Notes under the pieces: model-generated
The model's input: only the letters and a program-made list of their open reading frames with translations
Database searches by the model: none
Told to the model about the DNA's origin: nothing
Shown here: positions 9,521 to 42,498 of the stretch, one piece after another
How the letters are laid out: every line of letters begins with the position of its first letter
How positions within the stretch are numbered: the stretch's first letter is position 1
Assembly (NCBI GenBank): GCA_903929795.1
Contig: CAIYWC010000033.1
Span: 12,724-76,723 of the forward strand
From: an uncultured Myxococcales bacterium
Lineage (GTDB): Bacteria > Myxococcota_A > UBA9042
Reading direction: 5' to 3'
Length of the DNA stretch: 64,000 nt
Made by a program: the position numbers and the translations under genes

Positions 9521-9634
9521 GCCAGCCTCCTGTGCCGCCAGCGTACCGTTTTGGCCGGGCTTCGTCAGCCACCGTTTGACGTCAGGGGCCATTTCCCGGC
9601 ACAACTGCGGCAGGCAATTTCCGGTAGGCGGCCC

Positions 9635-10060
9635 ATGACGACCCTGCGCATTCTTGTTTTTCCTCTGCTGTTCGCGGCGGCCTGTGCGCGTCAGCCTGAT
9701 CCCGCGCGGGCGCTGCGTGGCGCGTCCGACGGCCCGGCGTCCATCGCGTTGCCGAATAACCTCCTGGAACTTGTGGAGAAAGCTGATGTGAAGCGCGGCG
9801 AGGCGCTGTTTGTCAGCAAGGGCTGCAAGGCGTGCCACAACCTGACGGACGTCAAGCTGGTGGGCCCCGGCCTGCAAGGCGTGCTGGAGCGCCGGCACCT
9901 GAATTGGGTCGCGCGGATGATCCTGCGGCCGGACGTGATGGTGAAGCAGGACGCCGAGGCCAAGCAGCTCTTTGCCCTGGTCATGACGCCCATGGCCAAC
10001 CAAAACGTTGCGGTCGAGACCGAGCTGCCCGCGCTGCTGGCGCTGCTGAAGTCGCTGTGA
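9635..10060 (+). CDS. Class I c-type cytochrome lipoprotein
   Basis: MTTLRILVFPLLFAAA-C lipobox, heme motif CKACH, VGPGL, and a distal Met in TPMANQ. Confidence 0.9.
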   Translation: MTTLRILVFPLLFAAACARQPDPARALRGASDGPASIALPNNLLELVEKADVKRGEALFVSKGCKACHNLTDVKLVGPGLQGVLERRHLNWVARMILRPDVMVKQDAEAKQLFALVMTPMANQNVAVETELPALLALLKSL

Positions 10061-11478
10061 ACAGGGTCCGCGCGCTTGCGCTTTTGGCCGGTCTCACGGT
10101 GCTCCTGGGCTGTGGCGCTGCGCCCATCGCGCCGCCGCCGCCGACCGGCGCTTTTGCGCCTTTTGCCGCCGAGGTCGCGCGGATTCTGCAGCCGGCGCGC
10201 GCGGATCGCGGCGCGTTTCAGAAGCTGACGGAGTTGTGCGACGGGATCGGCAATCGTCTCGCGGGTTCAGAGGCGCTCGATCGCGCGATCGCCTGGGCGC
10301 AGGCGACCCTGCGCGCGGACGGCTTGGCCAACGTCCACGCGGAGCCGGTGACCGTGACCCGTTGGGTGCGCGGGCAGGAATCGCTGGAGCTGCTGACGCC
10401 GCGGCCACTGGCGCTGACGATGCTGGGGCTGGGCGGATCGGTGGCAACGCCGCCCGAGGGCGTGACGGCGGAGGTCGTCGTGGCCCACGACGAGCATGAC
10501 CTGAAGCTGCTGGGCGAGCGGATCCGCGGGCGCATCGTGCTGTTTGACAATCCGATGCCGGTGTACACGCCGGAGACGGGCGCGCAGTACGGAGAAACCG
10601 TGCGATTTCGTGGACATGGCGCGGCGATCGCCGGCAAGCTGGGCGCGGTGGCGGTGCTGGTCCGCTCGGTGACGGCGCGCAGCCTGGCGACGCCGCACAC
10701 GGGCAACACGCGGTACGACGACGACGGGCCGAACATCCCGGCGGCGGCAGTGTCGACCGAACACGCGGCGCTGCTGACGCGGCTGATCGCACGCGGCGAG
10801 GTGGTCAAGGTGCGGCTGAAGATGCAGGCGCGCACCGAAGGCACAGCGCCGAGCGCGAACGTGCTGGCGGAGTTACCTGGGCGGGAGTGGCCCGAGCAGG
10901 TCGTCGTGTTGGGCGGCCACCTGGATTCCTGGGACGTGGGTCAAGGCGCGCACGACGACGGCGCAGGCTGTGTGATGGCGATGCAGGCGGTAGCGCTGCT
11001 GAAACGGCTGGGGCTGCAGCCGCGGCGCACGATTCGCGTCGTGCTGTGGACCAACGAGGAGAATGGCCTCGCGGGCGCGAAGGCGTATGCGCAGGTGCAC
11101 GCGGGCGAGCTGGTGCGGCACGTCGCGGCGCTGGAGGCGGATTCCGGTGCGTTCCGGCCTGAAGCGCTGACGGTGGAGCTTCAAGACGCGGAGCAGGAGG
11201 CCAAGGCGGCGGCCCAGCTGCACCAGCTGGCGGGGCTGCTGGCTGGGATGCAGCTTGAGATCCGGCAGCGCGGATCCGGCGCGGACGTGGCGCCGATGAA
11301 GTCCGGCGGCGTGCCGCTTGTCGGCTTGGTCATGGAAAGTTCGACGTATTTTGACTACCACCACACACCGGCGGATACGCTGGACAAGGTCGACCCGGCG
11401 CTGCTGGCGCAAGGCGAGGCGCTGTTTGCCGCGTTGGCGTACGTGCTCGCGGAGTGGCCCGGGCAGTTGGGGCGGTAG
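10057..11478 (+). CDS. M28 family metallopeptidase (carboxypeptidase Q-like, PA domain), lipoprotein
   Basis: GTG overlaps the cytochrome c stop (GTGA). LLG-C lipobox; motifs GGHLDSWDVGQGAHDDGAG, WTNEENGL, EADSG and YHHTPADTLDK. Confidence 0.92.
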   Translation: MNRVRALALLAGLTVLLGCGAAPIAPPPPTGAFAPFAAEVARILQPARADRGAFQKLTELCDGIGNRLAGSEALDRAIAWAQATLRADGLANVHAEPVTVTRWVRGQESLELLTPRPLALTMLGLGGSVATPPEGVTAEVVVAHDEHDLKLLGERIRGRIVLFDNPMPVYTPETGAQYGETVRFRGHGAAIAGKLGAVAVLVRSVTARSLATPHTGNTRYDDDGPNIPAAAVSTEHAALLTRLIARGEVVKVRLKMQARTEGTAPSANVLAELPGREWPEQVVVLGGHLDSWDVGQGAHDDGAGCVMAMQAVALLKRLGLQPRRTIRVVLWTNEENGLAGAKAYAQVHAGELVRHVAALEADSGAFRPEALTVELQDAEQEAKAAAQLHQLAGLLAGMQLEIRQRGSGADVAPMKSGGVPLVGLVMESSTYFDYHHTPADTLDKVDPALLAQGEALFAALAYVLAEWPGQLGR

Positions 11479-13100: not shown

Positions 13101-16100
13101 ATGGCGTCGCCGCTGCCGGTGGACGGTCGCGCGCCAGAGGTGGACTTGCCCAACAGCAATACGCCCGAGCAACCGCTCGCGCAGTTGGAGACGCTGGAGC
13201 CGGACGACTTGGAATCGCGGGCGCCGGTTGGCCCGCGCCCGGTCACGTCGGCGACGACGGCGTTTGACGCCAAGCGGTCGCCAAGCCGCGGGACTGAGCC
13301 GCTGCCGACGGTGGAAGTCGGTTATGAAATCGACCACTTCCGCGTTGTCCGGCTGCTGGGTCAAGGCGGCATGGGCCGCGTCCTGTTGGCGCGCGATACC
13401 CAGCTGGGCCGCCTGGTGGCGCTCAAGCTGATCCGGGAAGACCGGCTGGATCGCCTGGCGCTGGACGCGCTGCTGGCCGAGGCGCGGCTGACGGCGCGGC
13501 TGTCGCATCCCAACATCGTGACAATCCACGACATTGGCCGGTTTGACAACGCGTTGTACTTGGCGCTGGAGTACGTCGAAGGCGGCACGCTGCGGGATCG
13601 CCTGAGCGGCCAGGTGCTGCAGACCCGGGAGGCGATGCGGCTGGCGCTGCCGATTGCCCGCGCCCTGGAAGCGGCGCACGCCGCGCTGGTCAGCCACTGC
13701 GATCTCAAGCCCGAGAATGTGCTGGTGCCGCCCGATGGCCGGCTACGCGTCGTCGATTTTGGCATCGCGCGCGCGATCGACACGCGGCCACGAGATGCGC
13801 GCGAGCCCGGCCGGGAGCGCGTCGCCGGGACCCCGGGCTACATGGCGCCGGAGCAGTGGCGCGGCGAGGCGGTGACCGCCGCGGTGGACGTCTGGGCGCT
13901 GGGCGTCATCCTCACCGAAATGCTGGCGGGGCATCGGCCTTTTGAGGGTCCAAACAACGACGGGCGGCCGCTCCATGCGCGCGTGCTCGACCCGGAGCTG
14001 CCGCCCGAACCGCTGGACCATGAGCCGCCGGCGGTGCGCCAGTTGGTCGCCGAGATGCTGAACCGCGATCCCGCGCGGCGGCCGTTGGCAGCCGAGGTCG
14101 CGCAGGCGCTGGAGCACCTACTGCAGAGCGATGGCGCAGCGTCGCCGATCGCGGAGTCGCCGTTTCGCGGCCTGCTGCCGTTTGAAGAGCGCCACGCCGG
14201 CTTTTTCTTCGGTCGGGAGATCGAGGTCGACGCGGCGGTGGAGCGGCTGCGAACCGTGACACTGTTGCCGATCGTCGGACCGTCGGGCGCGGGCAAGAGC
14301 TCGTTTGTCCAGGCGGGCGTGTTGCCGCGGCTGCGCGAGCAAGGCGCCGTGACGTTGCTGGCCCTGCGCCCGGGTCCCCAGCCGCTGGCGGCGTTGGCGG
14401 CGCGCTTGCTGGTTCCGGAGACCGTGGATTCCAACCGCGACGCCCGGTCGCAGCCGGACGCGGTGGCGGCGCTGGCGGCGGCGCTGTTGGCCCGTCCGGG
14501 GCACGCCAACGTGCTGCTGCACGGCCTCGCGGACGCGACGCGCGCGCGCGTGGTGCTTTTTGTCGACCAGCTGGAAGAGGTGATGACCCAGGGCGGTCCG
14601 CCCGAGCACGCCCGCGCATTTCTGGAGGCGATCGCGCGCGCCGCCGATCCGGTGGACGACCAGGTGCGGGTCATCGTCACGCTGCGCGACGACTTTTTGG
14701 CCCGGCTGGCGGTGGGCGACGCAATGGCGGCGGCGCTGAACAACGTGCTCGTCGTGCGCCGGCTGGATGATCAGCTGCTGCGCGAGGCTGCGACGCGGCC
14801 GCTGGCGCGCCTGGGCTACGCCTGGGACGATCCCGAAGTCGTGAACCGCATGGCGTCCGAGCTGCGCGGGCTGGCGTCTGCGCTGCCGCTGCTGCAGTTT
14901 GCCTGTGCGGCGCTGTGGGAGCGTCGGGATCAGCGCAGCCACGTGCTGCGGCGCGCGGATTACGAAGCAATCGGCGGCGTGGCGGGCGCGCTCGCGGCGC
15001 ACGCGGAGGCGGTTTTTGACGGGTTGCCGCCGCACGACTTGGAGGTCGCCCGCGTGTTGTTGCTGCGGCTGGTAGCCCCGGACGGCGCGCGGCGGGTGGT
15101 CGCGCGATCGCGCGCGCTCGAGGGCCTGGGTGATCGCGGGGAACTGCTGGCGGAGCGCCTGGCGAATGCGCGGCTGCTGTCGGTGCGGCGTTCGCGCGTT
15201 GCGGCGACCGGCGAGGCGGTGCTGGAGCTGGCGCATGATTCGCTGCTGCGCGATTGGCCGCAGCTGCGCCGCTGGCTGGACGAGAGCTCCGAGGAGCGTC
15301 TGGTGTTGACCGAAGTCGAGGACGCCGCGCGCGTGTGGCATGGCCGCGGCCGGCAACCGCGCGAAGTGTGGCCGCTCGATGGGGTGCTCGACGCGCGTCG
15401 GCGGCTGCGGGCGGAGAGCGTGGCGCTCTCCCAGACCGCGCGCGATTTTCTCGCGCTGGGCGAGTCGATTGGCCGTCGGGATGCAAGGCGCAAGCGCTGG
15501 GCGGTCGGCGGGTCGCTGCTGCTGGCGCTGGTGATCACGCTCACGTCGGTCGCCGCGGCGCTGGCATTTGCCAACAAGGAGCGGCAGACCACGCGGCAGG
15601 CGCAGTTGATCGCCCATGGCGCGGCTGAGCGCGCGTTGGCCGCGGCGGACACGGGGCTGGTCCAGCTGGACCTGACGCTGGTTGACTGGGACGCGCAGCA
15701 GCTCAGGCCGCGACCAGTTTCTGCCAGTGAATTTGCCGACTTGAATGTGACGCTGTGGGAAGTCGATCTCCCGGACGCGGCGACGCCGGAACATCCGCGC
15801 GACGCGCATTTCGTGCAGCTCTCGGCGCCGGAGCGTCGCGGCGGCCATTGGCGGGCAGAGCTGCAGACGCGGTCCGGGCCGGCGTTCTTGCGGGTCGATG
15901 GCCGCGGTCGCGGTGGGCAGCAGTGTCCGCCGTCGTGGCTCAAGGTCCGTCACCTGCCGGGCTGGAGCCAGCGCGCGCAAGGGCCAGTGACCTTGGCGTT
16001 GCAGATTCCGACGTGCGCCGCGTCGCGGGCGGACCTGCGCGAGGTCGCGCCGGGGCCGTTCTACCACGCTGGCGAAGGCACGCCGGCCCTTGCCGGTCAT

Positions 16101-16751
16101 CTGCGGCCACAGCCGGAGCGCTTGGTCGACCTGCCCGGTTTTGCCATCGACCGGACCGAGACGACCAACGCCTGGTTTGCGGCGTTCGCGGCCAACCAAC
16201 CGGCGACCGGCATCCAGACGCCGGATTATCCCAGCCAAATGCGGGAAATGGGTATGGATGCGCCGGATCGGCCGGTGGTGGCGGTCGACGCGGCGACAGC
16301 GGATGCCTTTTGCGCCTGGCTGGGCAAGGCGCTGCCGACGACCGAGGAGTGGACCAAAGCGGGGCGCGGCGGTCTGGTGCTGGATCGCGCCGGGCAGCTG
16401 GTCAATCCGCTGCCGCGCCGCAACCTGCCGTGGGGCGAACGGCCGCCGGGACCGCAGTTCAACCTCAATGCACCGGGCGACCCCTGGGAGCTGTCCGCGC
16501 CCGTCACGGCGGACACCGCGGACGCGAGCCCGTACGGCGTCCTTGCGCTCGCTGACAACGTCGCCGAATGGACCGCGTCGGCGCCAGCTGGCAACGGCCA
16601 TGCGCTTCGCACGATCCGCGGCGGCGACTGGGGCGACCGCTGGAGCGACGGCACGCAATCGCTTGCCATCGAGAACCAGCGCAGTCCACGCTTTTTCGCC
16701 TTCAGCCTTGGCTTTCGCTGCGCCGCGCACGGGCCACCATGGGCGCCTTGA
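13101..16751 (+). CDS. Ser/Thr kinase - nSTAND1-type NTPase - TM - FGE/SUMF1-fold domain protein (copy 1)
   Basis: Kinase motifs LGQGGMG, VALK, HCDLKPEN, DFG and GTPGYMAPE. NTPase motifs VGPSGAGKSS and LFVDQLEE, then TLRDDF. TM segment WAVGGSLLLALVITL. FGE-like motifs IDRTETTN, LPTTEEWTKAGRG, NVAEW and GFRCA. Start could be TTG 12999. Confidence 0.92.
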   Translation: MASPLPVDGRAPEVDLPNSNTPEQPLAQLETLEPDDLESRAPVGPRPVTSATTAFDAKRSPSRGTEPLPTVEVGYEIDHFRVVRLLGQGGMGRVLLARDTQLGRLVALKLIREDRLDRLALDALLAEARLTARLSHPNIVTIHDIGRFDNALYLALEYVEGGTLRDRLSGQVLQTREAMRLALPIARALEAAHAALVSHCDLKPENVLVPPDGRLRVVDFGIARAIDTRPRDAREPGRERVAGTPGYMAPEQWRGEAVTAAVDVWALGVILTEMLAGHRPFEGPNNDGRPLHARVLDPELPPEPLDHEPPAVRQLVAEMLNRDPARRPLAAEVAQALEHLLQSDGAASPIAESPFRGLLPFEERHAGFFFGREIEVDAAVERLRTVTLLPIVGPSGAGKSSFVQAGVLPRLREQGAVTLLALRPGPQPLAALAARLLVPETVDSNRDARSQPDAVAALAAALLARPGHANVLLHGLADATRARVVLFVDQLEEVMTQGGPPEHARAFLEAIARAADPVDDQVRVIVTLRDDFLARLAVGDAMAAALNNVLVVRRLDDQLLREAATRPLARLGYAWDDPEVVNRMASELRGLASALPLLQFACAALWERRDQRSHVLRRADYEAIGGVAGALAAHAEAVFDGLPPHDLEVARVLLLRLVAPDGARRVVARSRALEGLGDRGELLAERLANARLLSVRRSRVAATGEAVLELAHDSLLRDWPQLRRWLDESSEERLVLTEVEDAARVWHGRGRQPREVWPLDGVLDARRRLRAESVALSQTARDFLALGESIGRRDARRKRWAVGGSLLLALVITLTSVAAALAFANKERQTTRQAQLIAHGAAERALAAADTGLVQLDLTLVDWDAQQLRPRPVSASEFADLNVTLWEVDLPDAATPEHPRDAHFVQLSAPERRGGHWRAELQTRSGPAFLRVDGRGRGGQQCPPSWLKVRHLPGWSQRAQGPVTLALQIPTCAASRADLREVAPGPFYHAGEGTPALAGHLRPQPERLVDLPGFAIDRTETTNAWFAAFAANQPATGIQTPDYPSQMREMGMDAPDRPVVAVDAATADAFCAWLGKALPTTEEWTKAGRGGLVLDRAGQLVNPLPRRNLPWGERPPGPQFNLNAPGDPWELSAPVTADTADASPYGVLALADNVAEWTASAPAGNGHALRTIRGGDWGDRWSDGTQSLAIENQRSPRFFAFSLGFRCAAHGPPWAP

Positions 16752-16776
16752 CGGTCGCGGCAATGCGGCTCAGGAT
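16748..16776 (+). promoter_or_regulatory. Putative internal sigma70-type promoter for the beta-rich gene (copy 1)
   Basis: TTGACG-N17-CAGGAT; the same geometry recurs in copy 2. Confidence 0.45.
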
Positions 16777-16809
16777 CGGCGCGTTCGCCAACCCAAACAG
16801 GAGGTTTCC

Positions 16810-17532
16810 ATGTCTTTTCCAACGCTCCCCGGGTTTCAGACCATCGGCGTGGCCGTTCAGGCGACGATCACCGCGTACAACGCCACCACGACCGATTTCT
16901 CTTTCACCGTTGGCGGCACGGGCTACAGCGCCACGTGGAGCACGGACGTCGTCGCCAACGTCATCAACACGATCAGCCGCACGGTCGGCTCCAACGGCCG
17001 CCTGAACTTGCGCGCCGCCAAAGCGAGCGGCCTGCGCCTGACCGGCACGCAGAGCGCGGGCTCCAACTACGGCGGCACCGATTTCCAGACCTACAGCGCC
17101 TACGGCGCGACCGTCCGCAGCGTCAGCGGCAATAACGTCACGCTCAACGTCGGCGGCAAGGACGTGACGGTCGACTGGACCAACCCCGGCGAGATCTGGA
17201 CCGGCGCCGAGACCACTATCACGCCGTCGCTCGGCAGCAGCGGAACCGCGCGGATCGGCGACGCTTTCGGCCGCAGTCAGGGCTTGGGCGGCCCGGACAA
17301 ATGGCCGGCCACGCTGACACGCGGCGCGCTGGCGCACGTGCGCGTGCTGTGCGCGGGACCGATGGGTCACGTCCACGCGCTGGATTCCAGCGACCTGCCG
17401 GTGCGCGACAGCCGTGGCAACGTCGGCACGTGGCAGCTGCCGGCCAGCGTCCAAGGCTTTGACCCGCAGAATCCGGCACCGCAGACCGTGGCGATTCCGC
17501 ATGGGCTCAGGGCGCAACTTGGCATTCCGTAA
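16810..17532 (+). CDS. Unknown beta-rich 240-aa protein with internal duplication (paralog of 21794-22588)
   Basis: AGGAGG RBS then ATG 16810 (MSFPTLPGFQTIGV...). No signal peptide. Clear similarity to copy 2 (VDWTNPGEIWTGAETTITP vs VDWYNPSNVWTGSETAITP). Confidence 0.85.
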   Translation: MSFPTLPGFQTIGVAVQATITAYNATTTDFSFTVGGTGYSATWSTDVVANVINTISRTVGSNGRLNLRAAKASGLRLTGTQSAGSNYGGTDFQTYSAYGATVRSVSGNNVTLNVGGKDVTVDWTNPGEIWTGAETTITPSLGSSGTARIGDAFGRSQGLGGPDKWPATLTRGALAHVRVLCAGPMGHVHALDSSDLPVRDSRGNVGTWQLPASVQGFDPQNPAPQTVAIPHGLRAQLGIP

Positions 17533-18079
17533 CGGCTACCAGCGCGCACCGATCTCCGTCCGGCGCTTCCGCGAGTGACGCTGCGGCGTGAAAGCCAGCG
17601 GGGCCAAAATCGTGGGGATCGACGCCGAGCACTGCGACCTGAACGCGACATCCGAGGCGCCGCTTCAGCCCCACCGCCAGCAGCGCGCCGTCGCCCTCCG
17701 CGCCGAGCGGCAGATCGCGCGCCAGCCCGCCCACGCCGACCCCGCAGCCGAGCAGCCGCAGCACCGTTTCGGAGTCAACAAGCGCTGGCGGATTGAGGAC
17801 TTGCGCAAGCACGCGCTGGATCGCCGGATCGCCGCTCAGCAGCGCGTCGCCGACCGAGAGCGCGCCCGGCTCCCCGTGGCCGACCAGATCCAGCACCGCC
17901 AGCGCGCCAAATCCCAGCTCGCGCTGGCGAAAGCGCACTTCGGTCAGCGCCTGCCATAGTCCGGTAAAACGCACGATGATCACGGCGGAATTCTCCACCC
18001 GCTCCGCGCAGGCATCCAGCCCGGCGTCTTCACCCGGCCACCGTTCCACCAACATGACATGCGGCCGCTGTGTCGCCAT
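17507..18079 (-). CDS. DUF4347-like caspase-fold (clan CD) His/Cys protease domain protein (copy 1)
   Basis: GGAGG RBS then ATG 18079. Motifs LDLVGHGEPGALSVG and TVLRLLGCGVG, followed by GALLAVGLKRRLGCRVQV. The 3' end overlaps the convergent gene by 26 nt. Confidence 0.78.
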   Translation of the reverse strand: MATQRPHVMLVERWPGEDAGLDACAERVENSAVIIVRFTGLWQALTEVRFRQRELGFGALAVLDLVGHGEPGALSVGDALLSGDPAIQRVLAQVLNPPALVDSETVLRLLGCGVGVGGLARDLPLGAEGDGALLAVGLKRRLGCRVQVAVLGVDPHDFGPAGFHAAASLAEAPDGDRCALVAVTECQVAP

Positions 18080-18181
18080 CGGCACCTCCACCGGCAGCGT
18101 CGGCGGCGTCGGCGTCGGCGTCAAGTTGCCAATGGACACCGCGAGCGCATTCCGTCACGATCCCGGCGGCCGTCGACCTTC

Positions 18182-21100
18182 GTGCAGGGGTGTCCGCTGT
18201 CTCGCGATCCGCAAAGTCCGCATCCGCCGCAGGACGCGCCGTTCCAGACGACGCAGGTGGACCTCCATCGGCCGTCTGTGGAGACTTTTGAGTCGCTGCA
18301 GACACCGGCGATCGGCCTGCACATCGACCATTTCCGCGTGCTGCGGCAGATCGGCGTGGGCGGCATGGGCCGCGTCCTGCTGGCGCGTGACACGCGGCTG
18401 GGCCGGCTGGTGGCGCTCAAGCTGATCCGCGAAGACCGTCTGGACGGTGAAGGCATTGTGGCGCTGATGGCGGAGGCGCGGCTGACGGCGCGCGTGTCGC
18501 ACCCGAATATCGTGACGATTCACCACATTGGCCGCTGGGGCAAGTCGCCGTACCTGGCCCTGGAATACATTTCCGGCACCAGCTTGCGCGAGCGACTGGT
18601 GTCCTCGCCGCCGACCCAGCGGGAAGCGCTGCGGATCGCGCTGTCGATCGCGCGCGCGCTGGAGGCGGCCCACGCTGCGCGCATCGTCCACTGCGACTTG
18701 AAGCCCGAAAACGTGCTGCTGCCGTCCGATGGCCGCCTGCGCGTAGTGGATTTTGGCATTGGCCATGTAGTGGAAACGATGACGACGGGGCCGCGCGAGC
18801 CGGGTCAGGGCCACGTGGCCGGGACGCCGGGCTATATGGCGCCGGAGCAGTGGCGCGGTGAAACACCCAGTGAAGCCGCGGACTTGTGGGCAATGGGCAT
18901 GATCCTGTACGAAATGCTGGCGGGCTATCGGCCTTTTGAAGGGCCTGCAGGCGACGGGCGGCCGATGCACATGCGGGTGCTCGACGAGGCGACGGTTATC
19001 CGGCCGATCTCCGGGATTCCCAATGATCTTCAGCATCTGGTCTCCGCGCTGTGCGAGCGGGATCCGCTCAAGCGGCCGCACGCTGGCGCCGTGGCCCGTC
19101 AGCTGGAGGCGATGCTGGCGCGCGATGACGGCGATTCCCGGGTCGCCGACGCGCCCTTTCGCGGGCTGTTGCCGTTTGAGGAGCGCCACGCCGGGTTCTT
19201 CTTCGGTCGCGACGCGGAAGTCGATGCCGCGGTGGAGCGCCTGCGCACGGCGACGGTGATGCCCATCGTCGGGCCGTCCGGCGCGGGAAAAAGTTCCTTT
19301 GTTCAAGCAGGGTTGCTGCCGCGGTTGCGCGAGCAGGGGCCGTGGACAATTGTGACGCTGCGGCCCGGCGCGCGGCCGCTCACGGCGCTGGCGTCGCGTT
19401 TGCTGCACCAGGACACCGCGGATCCGCGGCGGCCGACCAATCCGCCGCGCGACCAGGTCGACGAGCTCGCGCGGCAGCTCCTGGAGGAGCCGACGCAGGC
19501 CAACGTGCGGCTGCATCTGCTCGCGGAGCAAAACCACACACGGCTGCTGCTGTTTGTCGACCAGCTGGAGGAGGTCGTGACGCACGGTTGCCCGCCGGCG
19601 GAGGCTGCCGCGTTCCTGACGGCGATCGCCGGCGCTGCGGATCCGGTCGACGACGTGCTGCGCGTCGTGTTCACGCTGCGCGACGACTTTCTCGCGCGCG
19701 TGGCGGGTGGCGAGGCGATGGCGGCGGCGCTGGCCCAGGTGGTCGTGCTGCGGCGGCTGGACGATCGCCACCTGCGCGAGGCGGCGACGCGGCCGCTGGA
19801 GCGGCTGGGCTACACGTGGGACGATCCGAGCGTCATCGACCGCATCGTCGCGGAGCTGAGCGGGCTGCCCGCAGCGTTGCCGCTGCTGCAGTTTGCCGGC
19901 GCGGCGCTGTGGGAGCGGCGCGATCGCCAAGCGCACCGGCTGCTGCGGGCGGAATACGAGGCGATCGGCGGCGTGGCGGGCGCGCTGGCGGCGCACGCGG
20001 AGGCGGTCTTTGAAGGGCTGTCGCCGGCCGACGTGGCGGTCGCGCGGCGGCTGCTGCTGCGTTTGGTGGCGATCGACGGGACGCGCCGGGCGCTGCAACG
20101 CCAAGCGGCGCTGGACGGGCTGGGTCCGCGCGCGGAAGTCGTGCTGGAGCGGTTGACGGCGGCGCGGCTGCTGACGGTGCGGCGCTCGCGGGTGGCGCAG
20201 GACGACGCGGTGCTGGAGCTCGCCCATGAATCGCTGCTGCGGACTTGGCCGCAGCTGGTGCGCTGGCTCGAAGAGAGCTCGGAGGAGCGACTGGCGGCGG
20301 CCGAGGTCGAGGAAGCGGCGCGGCTGTGGGCGAGCCGCGGCAAGCCGCTGGCGGAAGTGTGGCCTCTGGATGGCATCGCGGATGCGCGCCGCCGCCTGCG
20401 CGCGGAGGCCGCGTCGTTGTCGCAAAATGCCAAGGATTTTCTGGAGAACGGGGAGACCGCCGGTCTGGCGCGGCGCAGCAAGACGCGCTGGCTGATGGTG
20501 GCCGGCCTCGCGCTCGCCGCGCTTGTGACAACCGCGTCGCTGGTGACGGCGGCTGAGCTGGCCCGCCGCGAGCGTACGACCCAGGCCCAAGCGGCGCAGA
20601 TCGCGCTGGCCGCGGCGGATACGGGCCTCGCGCAGCTGGAGCTGGAGCTTGTCGACCGGGACGCGCGGACCGGCCAGGTTCGGCCGGTCGATGCGGCGCA
20701 GTTTGCGCAGCTCAAGGTCACGGTGTTGGACGCCGACCCGCGCGATGCGCATCGGCCGGGCGCGGTGCGTGACCCGCGTTTTGTCCACCTGGGGCCGCCG
20801 CAGGTGGTGAACGGTCGCTGGACGACGTCGCTGGAAACGCGATCGGGCACGGCTTTTTTGCAAGTGGCCGGGCGAGGGCGCGACGGGCAGCGCTGTGCGC
20901 CGTCCCTGCTGCACCTGCGCAGCCTGCCCGGCTACGTCGAGCGCAATCGCGGACCGGTGGCCCTGCGCGCGACCGTGCCGACCTGCGCGGCGACGGCCGA
21001 GGATACCGTGGAAATTCCCGCAGGTCCGTTCATTTTCGGCGGCGAAGGCGAGCCGCCGATCCCCAGCCGTTTGCCCACGACGCCGGAGAAGCAGCTGAAT

Positions 21101-21703
21101 TTGCCGACATTTTGGCTCGACCGCTCGGAAGTTTCCAACGCCTGGTACGCGGTCTATGCCCGCAACGAACCGCTGACCGGCGAAGGCGTGCCGGATTACC
21201 CGCCTGAAGACGTGGTCCACGACGCGGCGAAGGCGGACCACCCGGTCAGCGCCCTGGACGCGTACGCCGCCGAGGCATTCTGCGCGTGGCAGGGCAAGCG
21301 CCTGCCGACGACCGAGGAGTGGACCAAGGCGGCGCGCGGTGGTTTGACGCTGGACGCCGCGGGACGGCTGGTCAACCCGCTGCCGAGGCGCAACTTTCCC
21401 TGGGGCATCGACATGGCGCCCAATCGCGTCAACTTGGGGGATCGTGGCGACGCTTGGCCCGCCAGCGCGCCGACGATCAGCATGCCCGAGGGCGCCAGTC
21501 CGTACGGCATCCTGCACATGGCCGACAACGTCAGCGAATGGACGGCGACCACGCCGCGCGAGTCGCGGGGCTCTTCGCTCCGGCTGATGCGCGGCGGCGA
21601 CTGGTTCACCCCAAGCGTCGATGGCGTCCACTCGATTTCCGGAGAGAACGAGCGCAATCCTCGGTACTTCGCTCTTGCCTTGGGCGTGCGCTGCGCGTGG
21701 TAA
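18182..21703 (+). CDS. Ser/Thr kinase - nSTAND1-type NTPase - TM - FGE/SUMF1-fold domain protein (copy 2)
   Basis: Same motif order as copy 1: IGVGGMG, HCDLKPEN, VGPSGAGKSS, LFVDQLEE, TM WLMVAGLALAALV, LPTTEEWTKAARG, NVSEW, GVRCAW. Start uncertain (GTG 18182 chosen). Confidence 0.92.
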   Translation: MQGCPLSRDPQSPHPPQDAPFQTTQVDLHRPSVETFESLQTPAIGLHIDHFRVLRQIGVGGMGRVLLARDTRLGRLVALKLIREDRLDGEGIVALMAEARLTARVSHPNIVTIHHIGRWGKSPYLALEYISGTSLRERLVSSPPTQREALRIALSIARALEAAHAARIVHCDLKPENVLLPSDGRLRVVDFGIGHVVETMTTGPREPGQGHVAGTPGYMAPEQWRGETPSEAADLWAMGMILYEMLAGYRPFEGPAGDGRPMHMRVLDEATVIRPISGIPNDLQHLVSALCERDPLKRPHAGAVARQLEAMLARDDGDSRVADAPFRGLLPFEERHAGFFFGRDAEVDAAVERLRTATVMPIVGPSGAGKSSFVQAGLLPRLREQGPWTIVTLRPGARPLTALASRLLHQDTADPRRPTNPPRDQVDELARQLLEEPTQANVRLHLLAEQNHTRLLLFVDQLEEVVTHGCPPAEAAAFLTAIAGAADPVDDVLRVVFTLRDDFLARVAGGEAMAAALAQVVVLRRLDDRHLREAATRPLERLGYTWDDPSVIDRIVAELSGLPAALPLLQFAGAALWERRDRQAHRLLRAEYEAIGGVAGALAAHAEAVFEGLSPADVAVARRLLLRLVAIDGTRRALQRQAALDGLGPRAEVVLERLTAARLLTVRRSRVAQDDAVLELAHESLLRTWPQLVRWLEESSEERLAAAEVEEAARLWASRGKPLAEVWPLDGIADARRRLRAEAASLSQNAKDFLENGETAGLARRSKTRWLMVAGLALAALVTTASLVTAAELARRERTTQAQAAQIALAAADTGLAQLELELVDRDARTGQVRPVDAAQFAQLKVTVLDADPRDAHRPGAVRDPRFVHLGPPQVVNGRWTTSLETRSGTAFLQVAGRGRDGQRCAPSLLHLRSLPGYVERNRGPVALRATVPTCAATAEDTVEIPAGPFIFGGEGEPPIPSRLPTTPEKQLNLPTFWLDRSEVSNAWYAVYARNEPLTGEGVPDYPPEDVVHDAAKADHPVSALDAYAAEAFCAWQGKRLPTTEEWTKAARGGLTLDAAGRLVNPLPRRNFPWGIDMAPNRVNLGDRGDAWPASAPTISMPEGASPYGILHMADNVSEWTATTPRESRGSSLRLMRGGDWFTPSVDGVHSISGENERNPRYFALALGVRCAW

Positions 21704-21720
21704 AAAGACTCCCGGCACCG

Positions 21721-21749
21721 TTGACGGCGCCCGTTCCGAGTATCACCAT
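21721..21749 (+). promoter_or_regulatory. Putative internal sigma70-type promoter for the beta-rich gene (copy 2)
   Basis: TTGACG-N17-CACCAT. Confidence 0.45.
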
Positions 21750-21793
21750 CGCCGCGGGCCGAAAACCAACTGCCGGCCCTGGGAGGTGGACCG

Positions 21794-22588
21794 ATGGTAG
21801 CGACAGCTTATCCGGGTTACGACATCATTGGCGTGTGTCAGGACGTGATCATCCGGACCTGGGTGAATCCGACGATTACGTTCAATCTCCGCTCTGACCC
21901 GAACGGGGCGCCGTACACGGCAAACTGGGGCTCGGACGTCGTCCACAGCGGTTTGCTCACTTCGGTGACGCCGGTGGTCGGTTCGGCGGGTCGTCTGTGC
22001 CTGACTTACGCCGCGGCGGGCCACCTGCGCCTCGGCGGCACGCCGTATGTCAAGTCCAGCTTCGCCGGCGTCGACCACGCGACCGCGACGCCGTACTACG
22101 CCATCGTCCGGACCGTGACGCCGAACGGCACGCGGCTCGACGTGCAGCTGAACGTGCAGGTCGCACCGGGTCGGTTCTCGCTGGCGACCGTCGACTGGTA
22201 CAACCCGTCGAACGTCTGGACCGGGTCCGAAACCGCGATCACGCCGGCACCGGGCAATGCGGGCACGGTTTATGTCCACGACGCGTACGCCGCGGCCAAT
22301 GCTGCCGCTGGCTTGTCCGCGACCGGCAAGTGGCCGACTGATCTGGGCTTGCGCGCCAAGCCGATCCCGTACGACGTGCAGATCGTCGGCACGATGACGG
22401 TTCCGCTCGTGCAGGTGCTGGCGACCAAGAATGGCGCGCCCAGCTTCGCCGACGGGACGCTGTCCTACTGGCTGCCGGCCGATAATGGCTTGCACGTCGA
22501 GCACTTGCAGCCGCACGACTTTCACGACGTCCAGCCAATTACCGTGACGCCGGACTGGGTGAACGCCGTTGGCTTGCCGCACAAGTAG
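21794..22588 (+). CDS. Unknown beta-rich 264-aa protein (paralog of 16810-17532)
   Basis: GGAGG RBS; no signal peptide. Aligns with copy 1 (GYDIIGV/GFQTIGV, YTANWGSDVV/YSATWSTDVV, VGSAGRL/VGSNGRL). Confidence 0.85.
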   Translation: MVATAYPGYDIIGVCQDVIIRTWVNPTITFNLRSDPNGAPYTANWGSDVVHSGLLTSVTPVVGSAGRLCLTYAAAGHLRLGGTPYVKSSFAGVDHATATPYYAIVRTVTPNGTRLDVQLNVQVAPGRFSLATVDWYNPSNVWTGSETAITPAPGNAGTVYVHDAYAAANAAAGLSATGKWPTDLGLRAKPIPYDVQIVGTMTVPLVQVLATKNGAPSFADGTLSYWLPADNGLHVEHLQPHDFHDVQPITVTPDWVNAVGLPHK

Positions 22589-22597
22589 CCGCCACGG

Positions 22598-23566
22598 TCA
22601 GTCGAACCGCAGCCAATAGAGCCGCTCGCGACCATCCGCCGTCGGTTTACGCAGCATAATCATGGGCTTGTTGTCATGCCAGCCTTCGAGCGCGAGCATC
22701 AGCACGCGCGGCGCGCCCTCGTGCACGAACGCCAGCGGGAACGCCGGCCCGGGCCGCGCCAGCAGTCCGGTCATGTCTTGCAGCCACAGCCGCGCGATCG
22801 CCTCGTCGTGCGGCAGCCGGCACTCCGTTAGCTTGGCAAACGCGACCGTGTGGCCAAAGCTGTCCGCGATCACGCCGGTCCACAGCGCCGACTTCAGCGT
22901 TCCGGTCAGCTCGCCCAGATCCTCGGGTGACGTGTCCCCGCAGCTCGCCGCGCAGGCACAGTTGTCCGGATTCTGCGGGTTGACGGCGGCCAACGCGCAA
23001 GAATTCATCGACGGCGGTTGCGCCAGCAGCGCGTCGCAGCGAAAGCCAGTCGCGGTGAATTGGCAGGCATTGATGGCGTTGGTGGTCACCTGCACCACGC
23101 ACCCGAGCCGCCGGGCCAACGACAGCGCCAACACCGGGCCATCGCCGTTGCTCAGCAGCGGCAGCGGCATCGCCGTCCCGGTATTGCAGCCCAGCAGCCG
23201 AATCACCGTGTCCGGCAAAATGCGGTTGCCGATCTGCATGTTGAATTGCACGAGGCAATCCTGAAAGTTCTCGTCGGCAGTCATCCACTGGTCGATGCCG
23301 ACCTCCAGCGCACCCGGTGCGCCGTGGCCGACGATGTCCAGCACGCCGATCGACGTGAAATTCACATTGTAATTCAGCTGATTGCCAAGCGTCACCAAGC
23401 CAGCCTGAAAGTCGTGGTAGCCGCGCTGCTTGATGACGGTCGGCGACGTGACTTTTGCCAGACAATCATCGACCCGGCCGCCATCCGCAAAGTCGCTCGC
23501 GGCCATGACAACGTGGATCTTGTGGCTGGCGCTCACCGTCGCGTGCGCGGCCTTTTTCTTGGTCAT
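22598..23566 (-). CDS. DUF4347-like caspase-fold His/Cys protease domain protein with C-terminal extension (copy 2)
   Basis: GGAGG RBS then ATG 23566. Motifs VLDIVGHGAPGALEVG, TVIRLLGCNTG and GDGPVLALSLARRLGCVVQV. About 130 extra C-terminal residues relative to copy 1. Confidence 0.82.
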   Translation of the reverse strand: MTKKKAAHATVSASHKIHVVMAASDFADGGRVDDCLAKVTSPTVIKQRGYHDFQAGLVTLGNQLNYNVNFTSIGVLDIVGHGAPGALEVGIDQWMTADENFQDCLVQFNMQIGNRILPDTVIRLLGCNTGTAMPLPLLSNGDGPVLALSLARRLGCVVQVTTNAINACQFTATGFRCDALLAQPPSMNSCALAAVNPQNPDNCACAASCGDTSPEDLGELTGTLKSALWTGVIADSFGHTVAFAKLTECRLPHDEAIARLWLQDMTGLLARPGPAFPLAFVHEGAPRVLMLALEGWHDNKPMIMLRKPTADGRERLYWLRFD

Positions 23567-23626: not shown

Positions 23627-25588
23627 TCAAAACCCGGGGCAAAACTGCGCTTGATAGCCGTCCGCGATGCAGTTTTGTGTGCCCATCGTGTCCTGGCCGC
23701 AGCAGCTGCCGGGACATTGCGCGTTGGTCGTGCAGTTGTTCACGCACGCCGTGATCTTGCTGGGCCACGCCGGTCCGGTCTTGTTGGGCCAGTTCAGGCA
23801 TTGGCCGGTGCCGCCGACGCCGCACGCGTATGGTTGGGAGTCGGTTGCCCAGTATTCGGTTGTGCCGCAGCACTCCGAGTCGTACGTCGGCGTCAGGCAG
23901 TGCTTGGTCTTGTAGGTCATGTAGCAGCACGAACTGGGGCAATCCGCGCCGGTGTTGCACGTCTTGGCGCAAAACGGCACGAGGTTGTCCGGGTATTGGA
24001 TGCACGTCTCGTCCGCGGCGCACTGCGAACCGCCGCAACATTGCGGAATCAAATCGTGTTTGCAGCCCGTCGCCGTCAAACACGCGTCCAGCGTGCAGAT
24101 GTCGCCGTCGTCGCATTGCGTCTTGTCCGGCGTGTGGCTACAGCCGCCGCTGGCCGGGTCGCAGACGTCCTTGGTGCAGGCGATCCCGTCGTCGCAGTTC
24201 ATGCCTTGGCCGATGCAGCTGCCGCCGCTGCAGGTGTCGCTGACGGTGCAGGCGTTGCCGTCATTGCACGCGACGTTGTTGTCGGCGAACACGCAGCCCA
24301 GCTTGGGATCGCAGGAGTCCGTCGTGCACGGGTTCGCGTCGTCGCAGCTGGTCTGCTTGCCGATGCAAGCGCCGGTCGCGCAGGTGTCGCCGACGGTGCA
24401 CAGCGTGCCGTCGTCGCACGCGGCTTGGGTAGCGGTGTGCGTGCAGCCGCCGCCGGGCGCGCAGGCGTCGATCGTGCAGGGGTTGCCGTCGTCGCAGCCC
24501 AGGACGCCTTGCGATTTGCACAAACCGCCGGTGCAGACGTCGCCAGTGGTGCAGGGCAAGCCGTCGTCGCAGGCGATGCCGTCCAGCGGCGGGTGTTGGC
24601 AGCCCTGCGCGGGGTCGCAGAGGTCGTCGGTGCAGACCAAGCCGTCGTTGCAGTTCAGCGGCTTGCCCATGCAGGCGCCGTTTTGGCACTGGTCGCCGAA
24701 CGTGCACTTGCTGCCGTCGTTGCAGCTGACGCCCGCGGCAAACGGCGTGTACGTGCACTGGCCCGTCGGCGGATCGCAGCCGTCCAGCGTGCACGGATTG
24801 TTGTCATTGCAGACCTTTTGCGCGCCCGCGACGCAGCTGCCCTGGCAGGTGTCGCCAACCGTGCAGCCGTTGCCGTCGTCGCAGGGGCCGCTCGTGGGCG
24901 TGTGCGTGCACGCGCCGTTGCTCGGGTCGCACGCGTCCGCGGTGCACGGGTCGCCGTCGCTGCATTGCGCTTGAGCGCCGCCCGCGCACTTTCCGGCCTG
25001 GCAGTGGTCCTGGGTGCACGCGCTGCCGTCCAGATCGCACGCGGTGGTCAGCGGCGCGGGCGTGTGCGTGCAGCCTGAGGTGCCGGCGCAGTTGTCCACC
25101 GTGCACGGCTGGGCGTCGTTGCACAGCACACCGTTGTCGATCTCGCCGTCGCAGTCGTCGTCCAAACCGTTGCAGATTTCCGTGGTTGGCACGCACGGCT
25201 GAATATCGGGACCGATGACGTTGCCGTCGGGGTCGATCACCTGACCGTCGGGCAGGATCACGGAACCGTCTGGAATGATGAATGGAACGTCCGGCTTGAC
25301 CACTTGGCCGTCCGGCGCGTCCGGCAAGATGATCGTGCCGTCGATGAGCGTGACGTCCTTGAGCACTTGGCCGTCGGGCAGCACGACCTCGCCGTCCTTG
25401 ATCAGCACGCCATCCGGCGGCACCGTCGCGTCAGGCAGCGGCTCGCCATCGTGCTCCGCCAGCACGCCATCGCCGGTCTGGCCGCCGTCCGTCGCCACGA
25501 CTTGCGGCACGACGGCGGTGTCATCGCTGCACGCGCAGGTGCCAGCGACGGTGGCGGCAACCAACAGGAATCTCGGCACAAAACGCAT
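23627..25588 (-). CDS. Cys-rich lipoprotein: PDG repeats, MopE-type metal-binding motif, Dictyostelium-type repeats
   Basis: MRFVPRFLLVAATVAGTCA-C lipobox; (V/I)LPDGQV-type repeats; EICNGLDDDCDGEIDN; many CDDGNPCTxDxC units; C-terminal CPSSCC/CPGSCC modules. Confidence 0.88.
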   Translation of the reverse strand: MRFVPRFLLVAATVAGTCACSDDTAVVPQVVATDGGQTGDGVLAEHDGEPLPDATVPPDGVLIKDGEVVLPDGQVLKDVTLIDGTIILPDAPDGQVVKPDVPFIIPDGSVILPDGQVIDPDGNVIGPDIQPCVPTTEICNGLDDDCDGEIDNGVLCNDAQPCTVDNCAGTSGCTHTPAPLTTACDLDGSACTQDHCQAGKCAGGAQAQCSDGDPCTADACDPSNGACTHTPTSGPCDDGNGCTVGDTCQGSCVAGAQKVCNDNNPCTLDGCDPPTGQCTYTPFAAGVSCNDGSKCTFGDQCQNGACMGKPLNCNDGLVCTDDLCDPAQGCQHPPLDGIACDDGLPCTTGDVCTGGLCKSQGVLGCDDGNPCTIDACAPGGGCTHTATQAACDDGTLCTVGDTCATGACIGKQTSCDDANPCTTDSCDPKLGCVFADNNVACNDGNACTVSDTCSGGSCIGQGMNCDDGIACTKDVCDPASGGCSHTPDKTQCDDGDICTLDACLTATGCKHDLIPQCCGGSQCAADETCIQYPDNLVPFCAKTCNTGADCPSSCCYMTYKTKHCLTPTYDSECCGTTEYWATDSQPYACGVGGTGQCLNWPNKTGPAWPSKITACVNNCTTNAQCPGSCCGQDTMGTQNCIADGYQAQFCPGF

Positions 25589-25725
25589 GGCTTTCCCCAT
25601 TCTACGCGGGCGGGCAAGCGAGATGTCCGTCCTGCGCAGCGTAGTCACGGCGCGCTTGGGCTGCAAGCGACAATTCGGCGGTCGCGGTTGCTCCACATGA
25701 TCCCCTTTGTGCGAGACCACAACCT

Positions 25726-25820
25726 CCAATGTGAGACCTGTTGCATTGCGGACTGGACCGCGAGCGTGCTCCTCGGGAGGCACGCCGCGGATGACAGACG
25801 CTTGATCTCGAACCTCGGCG
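25726..25820 (-). repeat. Dispersed structured intergenic repeat, copy A
   Basis: Minus strand CGCCGAGGTTCGAGATCAAGCGTCTGTCATCCGCGGCGTGCC-tcccgaggag-CACGCTCGCGGTCCAGTCCGCAATGCAACAGGTCT matches 55065-55152 (33/42, then 32/36, counted by hand). Confidence 0.85.
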
Positions 25821-30452: not shown

Positions 30453-32036
30453 ATGGACATCCGCGTTGAAGAAGTCAGCCGCATCATTCGCGACCAGGTC
30501 GCCAACTACGGCGCCAAAGTTGACGTTCAGGAGACCGGCCGTGTGCTGGCGGTGGGCGACGGTATCGCCCGCGTCCACGGTCTGGAAGCGGCCATGGCCG
30601 GCGAGCTCCTGGAATTTCCGCATGATGTCAAGGGCATGGTGCTGAATCTGGAAGAAGACAACGTCGGCGTCGCGCTGCTCGGCAATGCCAACGCGATCAA
30701 AGAGGGCGACCTCGTCAAGCGCACCGGCCGCATCGTCGAAGTGCCGATCGGCATGGCGCTGCTCGGCCGCGTGATGAACGCGCTCGGACAGCCGATCGAC
30801 GGCAAAGGTCCGCTGGCCAACGCCGACGGCTCGCCGCTGACCTACGGCCGCGTGGAAGTCAAAGCCAAGGGCATCATCTCGCGCAAGCCGGTGTTCGAGC
30901 CGCTGCAGACGGGCTTGAAGCCGATCGACGGCATGGTGCCGATCGGCCGCGGTCAGCGCGAGCTCATCATCGGCGACCGCCAGACCGGCAAGACGGCCGT
31001 CGCGATCGACGCCATCATCAACCAGAAGCCCGAGCACGAGCGCTTCAAGGCCGGCGACAAGACCGCCAAGCCGGTCTACTGCATCTACGTCGCCGTCGGC
31101 CAGAAGCAGTCGACCGTCGCGCAGGTTGTCAAAAAGCTGACGGATCACGGGGCGTTGGACTACACGATCGTCGTCTCTGCCGGCGCGTCGGATCTCGCGC
31201 CGCTGCAGTTCCTGGCGCCGTACACCGGTGCGGCGATGGGCGAATACTTCCGCGACAACGGCATGCACGGGCTGATCGTGTACGACGACCTGTCCAAGCA
31301 GGCGGTCGCGTATCGCCAGATGTCGCTGCTGCTGCGCCGTCCGCCGGGCCGTGAAGCGTATCCGGGCGACGTGTTTTACCTCCACAGCCGTCTGCTCGAG
31401 CGCGCCGCCAAGCTGCGCGACGAAGAGGGCGGCGGGTCGCTGACGGCGCTGCCGATCATTGAGACGCAGGCGGGCGACATCTCCGCCTATGTGCCGACCA
31501 ACGTGATTTCGATCACGGACGGCCAGATCTTTCTGGAATCGGACCTGTTCTTCAAAGGCATCCGCCCGGCCATCAACGTCGGCTTGTCGGTGTCCCGTGT
31601 CGGCGGCGCGGCGCAAGTCAAGGCGATGAAGGCGGTGGCCGGTCCGCTGCGGTTGTCGCTCGCGCAATACCGTGAATTAGCTGCGTTTTCGCAGTTTGCG
31701 TCGGACCTCGATCCGTCCACCCAGCGCACGCTCGCGCAAGGCGCGCGCCTCACGGAGCTGCTCAAGCAGCCGCAGTACCAGCCGATGCAGGTGCACGAGC
31801 AAGTCATCCTGATGTTCGCCGCGACCGCCGCGGAGGGCTTCATCGATCACCTGCCCGTCGCTGCGCTGCGCCGCTATGAGCAGGAATTGTTCGCGTTCCT
31901 GCGCAACCAGAAGGCGGAGATGCTGGAGAACCTCAAGAACGGCGTCACCAAGACCGATCTGAAAAAGAAGGACGATCCGTACCGCGTGGCCCTTGTGGCC
32001 GCGCTGACGGAGTTCAAGGCGCTGTTCCAGGCGTAG
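30453..32036 (+). CDS. atpA: ATP synthase F1 subunit alpha
   Basis: [39 protein letters not shown]. Confidence 0.99.
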
Positions 32037-42396: not shown

Positions 42397-42498
42397 GCGT
42401 GCCTCCGCCCTTCTGCGCACCGAGGATCGCACGTCTCGCGGCGGATGGGCAAGTCCGCGTTGACGCCGCGCGTCTGCATCGCGCATCCTCCCGCGGCC

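Follow-up and report, generated by a model that had tools for sequence, protein, structure and literature searches.

Two diverged copies of a module joining a kinase-STAND receptor, an orphan small protein and a predicted clan CD peptidase in an uncultured Myxococcales bacterium

We analyzed a stretch of 64,000 nucleotides (the window) from an uncultured freshwater Myxococcales bacterium (assembly GCA_903929795.1, contig CAIYWC010000033.1, positions 12,724 to 76,723 of the forward strand), with a GC content of about 68%. Two neighbouring copies of the same three-gene arrangement were found, at 13101-18079 and 18182-23566. Each consists of a gene for a protein with kinase, nSTAND1, transmembrane (TM) and FGE regions (K), a gene for a small orphan protein in the same direction (B), and a convergent gene for a predicted cysteine peptidase (C). 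The explanation that we favor, with a confidence slightly above even, is that these are two diverged copies of a conserved three-component receptor-protease module that acts in conflict or in self/non-self recognition, by the mechanism proposed below. What is new is that a predicted clan CD protease and a new family of small proteins are, as far as sequence comparison can tell, conserved partners of a known class of receptors.

Genes were called from third-position GC content (GC3) and open reading frame (ORF) analysis, and their starts were checked against sequences resembling ribosome-binding sites (RBS) and against orthologs. The six genes of the two copies, with the evidence for each, are as follows.

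13101-16751, + strand: K1, protein of 1216 aa with kinase, nSTAND1, TM segment, ectodomain linker and FGE/C-type-lectin-like domain (Pfam; GC3 and ORF analysis)
16810-17532, + strand: B1, orphan small protein of 240 aa (good RBS; 58 bp past K1)
17507-18079, - strand: C1, minimal clan CD cysteine peptidase (predicted), DUF4347-like, 190 aa (hidden Markov model [HMM], AlphaFold2 [AF2] model, motifs)
18182-21703, + strand: K2, K1 paralog of identical architecture, 1173 aa (Pfam, alignment)
21794-22588, + strand: B2, B1 paralog, 264 aa (alignment; 90 bp past K2)
22598-23566, - strand: C2, C1 paralog with a C-terminal extension of about 130 aa, 322 aa (alignment, motifs)

K1 and K2 are 59% identical over 1174 aa (full length), C1 and C2 are 37% identical over 187 aa (E 7e-30), and B1 and B2 are 39% identical over their N-terminal 157 aa (E 4e-27), in an alignment that extends over the full length. 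The 3' ends of the convergent B1 and C1 genes overlap by 26 bp (17507-17532), and those of B2 and C2 are separated by 9 bp; terminators would not fit, and the transcripts should therefore overlap in antisense. In lake and freshwater metagenomes from three studies, independent assemblies gave near-identical contigs that cross the gene junctions, and the arrangement in the window is thus not an assembly artefact. No structural variants inside the trio were seen in the lake metagenome contigs. A previous reading of this DNA from the letters alone (the sequence-only reading) had described a tandem repeat of K, B and convergent C, a well-diverged paralogy of all three genes, catalytic motifs kept in both copies, and a kinase-STAND-TM-FGE receptor. 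The gene calls and the independent contigs bear out the arrangement and the identities above the paralogy; the kinase, Walker A/B and GHG/LLGC motifs are indeed kept in both copies, and Pfam and TM prediction agree with the receptor architecture.

The C proteins provide the most concrete clue to function. C1 carries the motifs VGH68G and LLGC112, and GHG and LLGC are likewise kept in C2. No TM segment or signal peptide was predicted in either protein. The candidate catalytic residues, all placed by alignment, lie at the following positions.

17876-17878, - strand: C1 His68
17744-17746, - strand: C1 Cys112
23324-23326, - strand: C2 His81
23186-23188, - strand: C2 Cys127

The Pfam family DUF4347 (PF14252) matched C1 with 13.3 bits and C2 with 14.5 bits, under the gathering threshold of 24.6, and the matches were centred on GHG...LLGC. 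An exhaustive HMM search recovered 81 representatives of the C family among 1.84 billion at E<=1e-3, and a word-index search with the broad C alignment found at least 5 proteins. Nearly all relatives are small (about 140 to 370 aa), and one His and one Cys are the sole invariant columns of the family in alignments of 79 and 82 sequences. DUF4347 is matched at E<=0.01 by 42 of 79 relatives themselves (best 2.9e-9), and Peptidase_C80 by one. Judged by these profile scores, C is a divergent sister branch of DUF4347 that falls below Pfam's membership threshold. Searched against solved structures, the family profile matched one, PDB 9QPE chain G (Tce1, PA0256; E 9e-4). In this alignment, the invariant His falls on chain position 77 and the invariant Cys on 131; if the chain is numbered from residue 110, where the resolved domain starts, these are His186 and Cys240 of Tce1. 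The Tce1 fold and its His186/Cys240 dyad superpose on the cysteine protease domain (CPD) of TcdB (PMC13323088).

An AF2 model of C1, built from the 82-sequence alignment, reached a pLDDT of 91.4. Compared with the PDB by Foldseek, it returned Tce1 as the top match (TM-scores 0.55/0.58, probability 1.00) with modest E-values (at least 1.7e-3), and the best 50 matches were all clan CD proteins: legumain, caspases 3, 6, 7 and 8, CED-3, SAVED-CHAT and GPI transamidase followed Tce1. An early model of C2, from an alignment of 4 sequences, had a pLDDT of 49 and generic Rossmann-like Foldseek matches and was discarded. Profiles and modelling together support the assignment of C as a predicted peptidase of the caspase-hemoglobinase fold (clan CD), in a branch resembling DUF4347 and CPD. 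The sequence-only reading had called C a caspase-fold protease, which holds for the clan CD fold and the invariant His/Cys; the nearest characterized relatives, in turn, are Tce1 and Tce2 and not caspases proper.

Tce1 (PA0256) and Tce2 (PA2372) of Pseudomonas aeruginosa are DUF4347 putative cysteine proteases carried as Hcp3 cargo of a type VI secretion system (T6SS) (Nat Microbiol 2026, PMC13323088). The toxicity of Tce2 in yeast requires the active site, and neither protein has an adjoining immunity gene (PMC13323088). C resembles them in that Tce1 is its best profile and structural match, the His and Cys are equivalent, and the proteins are small and stand alone, Tce2 having the same length as C1 (190 aa). 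It differs in having no T6SS context and in being linked to a kinase-STAND receptor and B; C is presumably an intracellular effector, not a secreted cargo. The C fold, with its His and then its Cys after consecutive beta strands, is also that of the caspases of the apoptosome and inflammasome, of SAVED-CHAT and of the caspase-like domains of ternary conflict systems. Like these effectors of oligomerizing sensors, C is associated with a STAND NTPase; unlike them, it is a single minimal domain with no CARD, death domain or effector-associated domain (EAD), and its activation by proximity would be putative.

We then compared the gene neighborhoods of the C relatives. Eight loci were long enough to tell: the two of the window, L009-11, L092, L094, L095/96, L098 and L099/100. 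In all eight, a C relative adjoins a Pkinase-nSTAND1-FGE gene. The six loci outside the window are arranged as follows (arrowheads give the direction of transcription; identities are those of K to the window).

L009-11: K>C><293-aa protein; 4-bp overlap between the K stop and the C start; K identity 66%
L095/96: K>162-aa B homolog><C; K identity 48%
L098: K>C, overlapping by 4 bp; K identity 42%
L099/100: C><K; K identity 41%
L092: C>132-aa protein><K; K identity 41%
L094: C>107-aa B-core protein><K; K identity 32%

The identity of K to that of the window thus runs from 66% down to 32% in non-syntenic loci, and up to 80% when syntenic relatives are included. Among the latter, the metagenome-assembled genomes (MAGs) L004-L006, labelled 'uncultured Myxococcales bacterium', have the order DUF218-K1-B1-C1-K2-CTDC, and the metagenome contigs L001 and L002 have K2-B2-C2-CTDC, the last gene coding for a Cys-rich protein described below. 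On three short contigs (L003, L008 and the P0008 contig), C is convergent with B or with a gene of the size of B. A protein with the B core is present in most loci: L008 has a clear homolog (HMM E 2e-64), that of L095 has 162 aa (E 1e-7), and that of L097 has 127 aa and directly follows C (E 2e-5). The candidates in L094 (107 aa) and L009 (293 aa) are similar at the level of the motif only, and the neighbors in L092 (132 aa) and L098 (95 aa) were not assignable to the B family. Across the loci, the orders K>B><C, K>C><B, C>B><K and C><K all occur; because order and orientation vary, the association argues for selection on linkage and not for shared ancestry of a single arrangement. In L009 and L098, the 4-bp overlaps indicate translational coupling of K and C.

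These data support the view that the trio is a conserved, functionally linked set and not a pair of duplicated neighborhoods, and they agree with the sequence-only reading, which had proposed such a neighborhood comparison of the three genes. A one-off segmental duplication of unrelated neighbors would be consistent with the adjacency of the two copies and with the great rarity of the families in databases, but the three families co-occur in non-syntenic loci, in rearranged order and with K identities down to 32%, and we regard this explanation as very improbable. The association has its own limits within the K family: 80 metagenome loci from the Joint Genome Institute (JGI), collected with kinase-motif patterns (K identity 33 to 48%; many short or without FGE), contained no C and no B. 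From sequence, B and C are partners of a narrow K subclade only, and the 80-locus sample gives no frequency.

The B and C genes also behave as a unit in evolution. The relevant site lies between K2 and the following gene.

23627-25783, - strand: CTDC gene, Cys-rich secreted-type protein of 718 aa with 8 Dicty_CTDC repeats

In related genomes, this site is found in four states. The window has B2-C2; L001 has their orthologs (B2 77% and C2 69% identical); L003 has a third C allele (33% identity) with a converging B-like gene, beside a CTDC gene that is 82% identical; and in L005 and L006 B2 and C2 are missing, and the stop of a K2 ortholog (79 to 80%) directly meets that of CTDC. B and C are thus gained, lost and replaced jointly while K and the flanks stay. 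They also diverge much faster than K across loci, as in L009, where K is 66% identical and C and B about 24 to 29%. The joint turnover and fast divergence point to an interacting pair under diversifying pressure.

Joint gain, loss and replacement is also how effector-immunity cassettes behave. C could be a secreted effector, a T6SS cargo of the Tce type, with B as its immunity protein or chaperone, and the two would merely lie beside K. The closest structure and the only characterized DUF4347 proteins, the Hcp3-loaded Tce1 and Tce2, would favor such a role, as would the equal length of Tce2 and C1. However, no Hcp, VgrG, PAAR or other T6SS Pfam family was found among the neighbors in any locus, K is adjacent in eight of eight loci, with the 4-bp K/C overlaps noted above, and Tce1 and Tce2 lack adjoining immunity genes (PMC13323088). 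We consider the cargo explanation quite unlikely.

The K proteins share a common architecture, whose parts are listed here.

13341-14105, + strand: K1 kinase domain, non-RD (HCDLKPEN) (Pfam, motifs)
14160-15359, + strand: K1 nSTAND1 NTPase, Walker A GPSGAGKS and Walker B VDQLEE (Pfam, motifs)
15495-15578, + strand: K1 single TM helix, aa 799-826, preceded by RRDARRKR on the predicted cytoplasmic side (hydrophobicity)
16044-16724, + strand: K1 FGE-sulfatase-like (lectin-fold) domain, predicted to be extracytoplasmic (Pfam)
18335-19093, + strand: K2 kinase domain (Pfam)
19154-20344, + strand: K2 nSTAND1 (Pfam)
20489-20563, + strand: K2 TM segment (hydrophobicity)
20996-21700, + strand: K2 FGE domain (Pfam)

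Pfam identified Pkinase (PF00069) in K1 (E 2e-54, 185 bits) and K2 (E 2e-48, 165.5 bits), nSTAND1 (PF20703; cut-off 27.1) in K1 (E 2e-93, 314.7 bits) and K2 (E 6e-99, 332.7 bits), and FGE-sulfatase (PF03781; cut-off 23.3) in K1 (E 3e-24, 86.6 bits) and K2 (E 1.5e-29, 103.9 bits). In K1, these domains span aa 81-335, 354-753 and 982-1208, respectively. The kinase motifs GxGGMGRV, VALK, HCDLKPEN (non-RD), DFG and APE are intact in K1 and K2, and both keep the Walker A GPSGAGKS and Walker B VDQLEE sequences. Each protein has a single strongly hydrophobic TM segment between nSTAND1 and FGE (K1 aa 799-826; K2 aa 770-794), with a run of Arg and Lys directly N-terminal of it. Since the TM segment is single and the positive residues lie on its N-terminal side, the kinase and STAND domains are predicted to be cytoplasmic, and a linker of about 150 aa and the FGE domain to be outside.

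We take the catalytic Cys pair of FGE enzymes to sit just upstream of the C-terminal GFRC motif, as in human SUMF1. No Cys is present between RGGDW and GFRC/GVRC in K1 and K2. Because Cys is absent at the expected position of the pair, we read the FGE domain of K as probably a lectin-like domain of the FGS type and not a catalytic FGE. The ectodomain has diverged more than the kinase and STAND domains, both between the K1/K2 paralogs (52 to 53% vs 64 to 69% identity) and among K2 orthologs (66 to 69% vs 82 to 92%), a pattern that we would call receptor-like.

The association of C with a membrane-bound K raises another alternative, in which C is a processing protease that acts in trans on K, once activated clipping the kinase-STAND part off the membrane, and B is a cofactor or inhibitor. 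Characterized C80 members, the CPD of the MARTX and TcdB toxins, are autoprocessing domains, and C groups with the DUF4347/C80-like part of clan CD. C is strictly linked to K, in some loci with translational coupling, and conservation of K is low in its TM segment and in the stretch before it. No cleavage site is identifiable in K, though, and Tce2, the closest relative tested for function, hits foreign targets (PMC13323088). Processing of K appears improbable to us, if less so than a secreted cargo.

B is the least familiar component. Relatives of B were found in none of Pfam, NCBIfam, a PDB profile search, PHROGs and PADLOC. A word-index search returned one ortholog only, and a metagenome pattern scan and viral contigs yielded none. 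The protein has no TM segment and no signal peptide, and Thr, Gly and Ser are abundant in it. A core of some 50 residues, [VI]DW..P..[IV]W.G.[EP][TS]T[IL]...G..G......KWP..L, is common to its relatives and was located by alignment in both copies.

17167-17316, + strand: B1 core, TVDW..P..IWTGAETTITP..G..G....KWPATL
22184-22345, + strand: B2 core motif

The conserved [EP]-[TS] of this core might be a phosphorylation or cleavage site, which we offer as speculation.

We next compared the trio with known systems. STAND proteins (nSTAND1 among the STAND types) that carry FGS, with S/T/Y kinase, caspase, trypsin or other effector domains at the N-terminus, were described as predicted sensors of invaders, with an enrichment in multicellular bacteria (Kaur et al. 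2021, PMC8195603). STAND proteins with a TM segment and a CLec/FGE domain were described as putative antigen sensors diversified by diversity-generating retroelements (DGR) (Dore et al. 2024, PMC10907252), and FGE-like sensors were noted among defence-associated STANDs in a 2026 preprint. The architecture class of K is therefore already catalogued as a predicted conflict-system sensor. As in the STAND-FGS proteins (PMC8195603), K combines an N-terminal S/T/Y kinase effector, nSTAND1 and a C-terminal FGS domain in one polypeptide, and occurs in several paralogous copies per genome in a multicellular lineage. The exact string Pkinase+nSTAND1+TM+FGS is not in the tables of that study, which treats FGS as an intracellular sensor, whereas the TM helix of K would place it outside. 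There, DGRs are frequent; here, K lacks an EAD adaptor, the window has neither a DGR nor a template repeat, and a separate DUF4347-like clan CD peptidase and a B-core protein adjoin K. The proteins of Dore et al. (PMC10907252) likewise combine Pkinase, nSTAND1, TM and CLec/FGE and are putative conflict sensors. They differ from K in that no DGR was detected in the window, variation here arising through paralogy and cassette turnover, and in that their study describes neither the protease nor B as partners. In the parts of the nSTAND1/FGS literature available to us (PMC8195603 with its supplements, PMC10907252 and the 2026 preprint), DUF4347 is not mentioned.

Concerning the DGR, no template repeat was detected in the window. 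Compared with the window, the last 450 nt of K1 and of K2 had no counterpart beyond themselves and each other; the single exception, a 46-nt match at 31589-31634 (80% identity, E 1.6e-4), we took as chance. No reverse transcriptase domain was found among the window genes scanned.

Among catalogued defence systems, the kinase domain of K strongly matches PADLOC PD-T4-6, MADS mad6, MkoA and the candidate C3a189; except for C3a189, the matches cover the kinase only, and none of these systems has a B or C component. Against NCBIfam MAD6, K scored 162 bits (cut-off 460). The PADLOC candidate PDLC01088, 'C3a189 kinase', aligns over both kinase and STAND (K1 aa 84-842, E 8e-42), which means that the unvalidated candidates of PADLOC already include kinase-STAND fusions, though without B or C. 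B, C and ten homologs from other loci had no match in PADLOC-DB 2.0, and C was not found in PHROGs or in viral contigs. No system in PADLOC-DB 2.0 matches the full trio; K alone matches. The sequence-only reading had not recognized the trio as a described system; this stands for B and C, which are absent from PADLOC, but not for K, whose architecture had been described (PMC8195603, PMC10907252).

According to our model, K would be a single-pass membrane receptor with its lectin-fold domain in the periplasm and an nSTAND1 switch and an active-looking kinase in the cytoplasm. C would be a dedicated minimal cytoplasmic protease, and B a small cytoplasmic orphan that always accompanies it. An external ligand binding to the ectodomain would cause NTP-dependent oligomerization of STAND, which would in turn activate the kinase. 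The assembled K platform would then recruit or phosphorylate the B-C pair. Finally, the protease C would be switched on as the output effector, cutting B (as inhibitor or pro-substrate), K itself or cellular targets. The two copies in the window and the allelic turnover of B-C between related genomes would provide differing specificities. Our uncertainty concerns mostly the biological role and the order in which the events occur; the topology is a prediction, and the domains, the modelled fold and candidate catalytic pair of C, the linkage of the genes and the polymorphism of the cassette come from the sequence analysis itself.

Several observations weigh against this model. The flanking genes are of the housekeeping type (M28 peptidase, DUF218, NUDIX, ATP synthase, MutS and RecD2), and none of the loci showed a known defence gene. 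By hhalign, no shared adaptor domain was detectable between K and B or C, nor an EAD-like adaptor shared by B with K or with C, and physical recruitment is thus putative. L099 has no B gene, which bears on the need for B, and L005 and L006 have a single B-C pair alongside two K genes, which bears on stoichiometry. Our search found no RNA runs containing the module region. The C family is rare in sequence databases, and the loci have a GC content of 62 to 72%; the taxonomic labels available are those of Myxococcales MAGs only, which makes the sampling narrow, and several loci may be phylogenetically close.

Some of these points would suit a module for non-immune signalling or development, in which K would be one of the many receptor kinases of myxobacteria, responding to a signal from the envelope or from outside the cell, and C would be a regulatory protease acting on B as its substrate to adjust a transcriptional or developmental output. 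The core housekeeping context with no defence island favors such a role, as do genes for sigma-54 activators abutting C in three contigs (L092, L093 and L097) and the extra stand-alone Ser/Thr kinase genes near the module in L095 and L099. Orthologous B and C moreover have identities of 59 to 77%, compared with 70 to 74% for the flanking g484, CTDC and g514 genes, a similar pace of divergence. On the other hand, close relatives differ at one site in the presence, absence and allele of B-C, the paralogs stand in tandem, and the vocabulary of STAND, lectin-fold and caspase-fold domains is typical of conflict systems (PMC8195603). We consider signalling the most serious of the alternatives, although not a likely one; a conflict or self/non-self role (against invaders or in kin recognition) fits better than housekeeping.

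The known class of kinase-nSTAND1-TM-FGE proteins here gains two separately encoded partners: the new family of small proteins and the caspase-fold protease of 190 aa, which gives the pathway a concrete and testable output. More tentatively, the module may be an undescribed transmembrane system of Myxococcota, similar to the nucleotide-binding leucine-rich repeat (NLR) receptors, in which sensing by an extracellular lectin-fold domain is passed through STAND and kinase to a caspase-fold protease and a fast-evolving B, and specificity changes as the B-C cassette is swapped, lost or duplicated among close relatives. It would then serve outside-in cell death or allorecognition in response to surface or extracellular non-self, such as phage, prey or non-kin, and not to invader proteins in the cytoplasm. 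To our knowledge, characterized bacterial STAND and NLR-like sensors (Avs, bNACHT) detect invader proteins intracellularly and carry fused effectors. If the receptor-protease model is correct, extracellular sensing, phosphorylation and caspase-like proteolysis would be joined in one compact bacterial module, found in a lineage of multicellular bacteria and with a logic close to that of the receptor-kinase and caspase pathways of animals. The DUF4347 protease superfamily also acquires a second, non-T6SS context, and the natural polymorphism of the cassette (ortholog, third allele or empty site) is usable for genetics.

Further features were observed around the module. A gene for a sigma-54 enhancer-binding protein (GAF+Sigma54_activat+HTH) lies just before C, with an overlap of a few bases, in L093 (6452-8011), L092 (2-643) and L097 (1-255), which suggests that in some lineages the C protease is co-transcribed with it or under sigma-54 control. 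The extra stand-alone Ser/Thr kinase genes lie a few kb from the K-C pair in two unrelated loci, L095 (1-2115) and L099/100 (L099 4968-5942, L100 4706-5902), and in L099 and L100 they are transcribed divergently from K.

A Cys-rich secreted-type gene adjoins the module in three loci: the window, L003 (1-459, Dicty_CTDC) and the non-syntenic L009 (11903-12775), where a Cys-rich lipoprotein-like gene of 290 aa lies beside B. Lake metagenomes cover the repeats of the window's CTDC gene (about 24175-25108) at 5 to 10 times the surrounding depth and with many alternative joints, and the repeat is therefore common to many genes or genomes. A MopE-repeat protein in L095 was considered as a syntenic counterpart of the window's CTDC gene and rejected.

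Elsewhere in the window, an ORF of 925 aa with high GC3 and no Pfam match (7226-10003, - strand) is overlapped for about 170 bp by the 5' end of the longest ORF of the M28/PA-domain peptidase (9832-11478, + strand). The true start of the peptidase probably lies further downstream, since its orthologs align only from residue 62-92. The MutS homolog (41932-45189, + strand; 1085 aa) has about 210 residues ahead of MutS domain I, an N-terminal extension of unusual length, provided that the gene really spans the longest ORF. A protein of 710 aa with no Pfam match (45199-47331, - strand) lies downstream of and overlaps a 228-aa protein consisting of HATPase_c only (47258-47944, - strand), and a Kelch/TSP3/MopE-repeat protein of 1149 aa (48052-51501) is found beside this pair.

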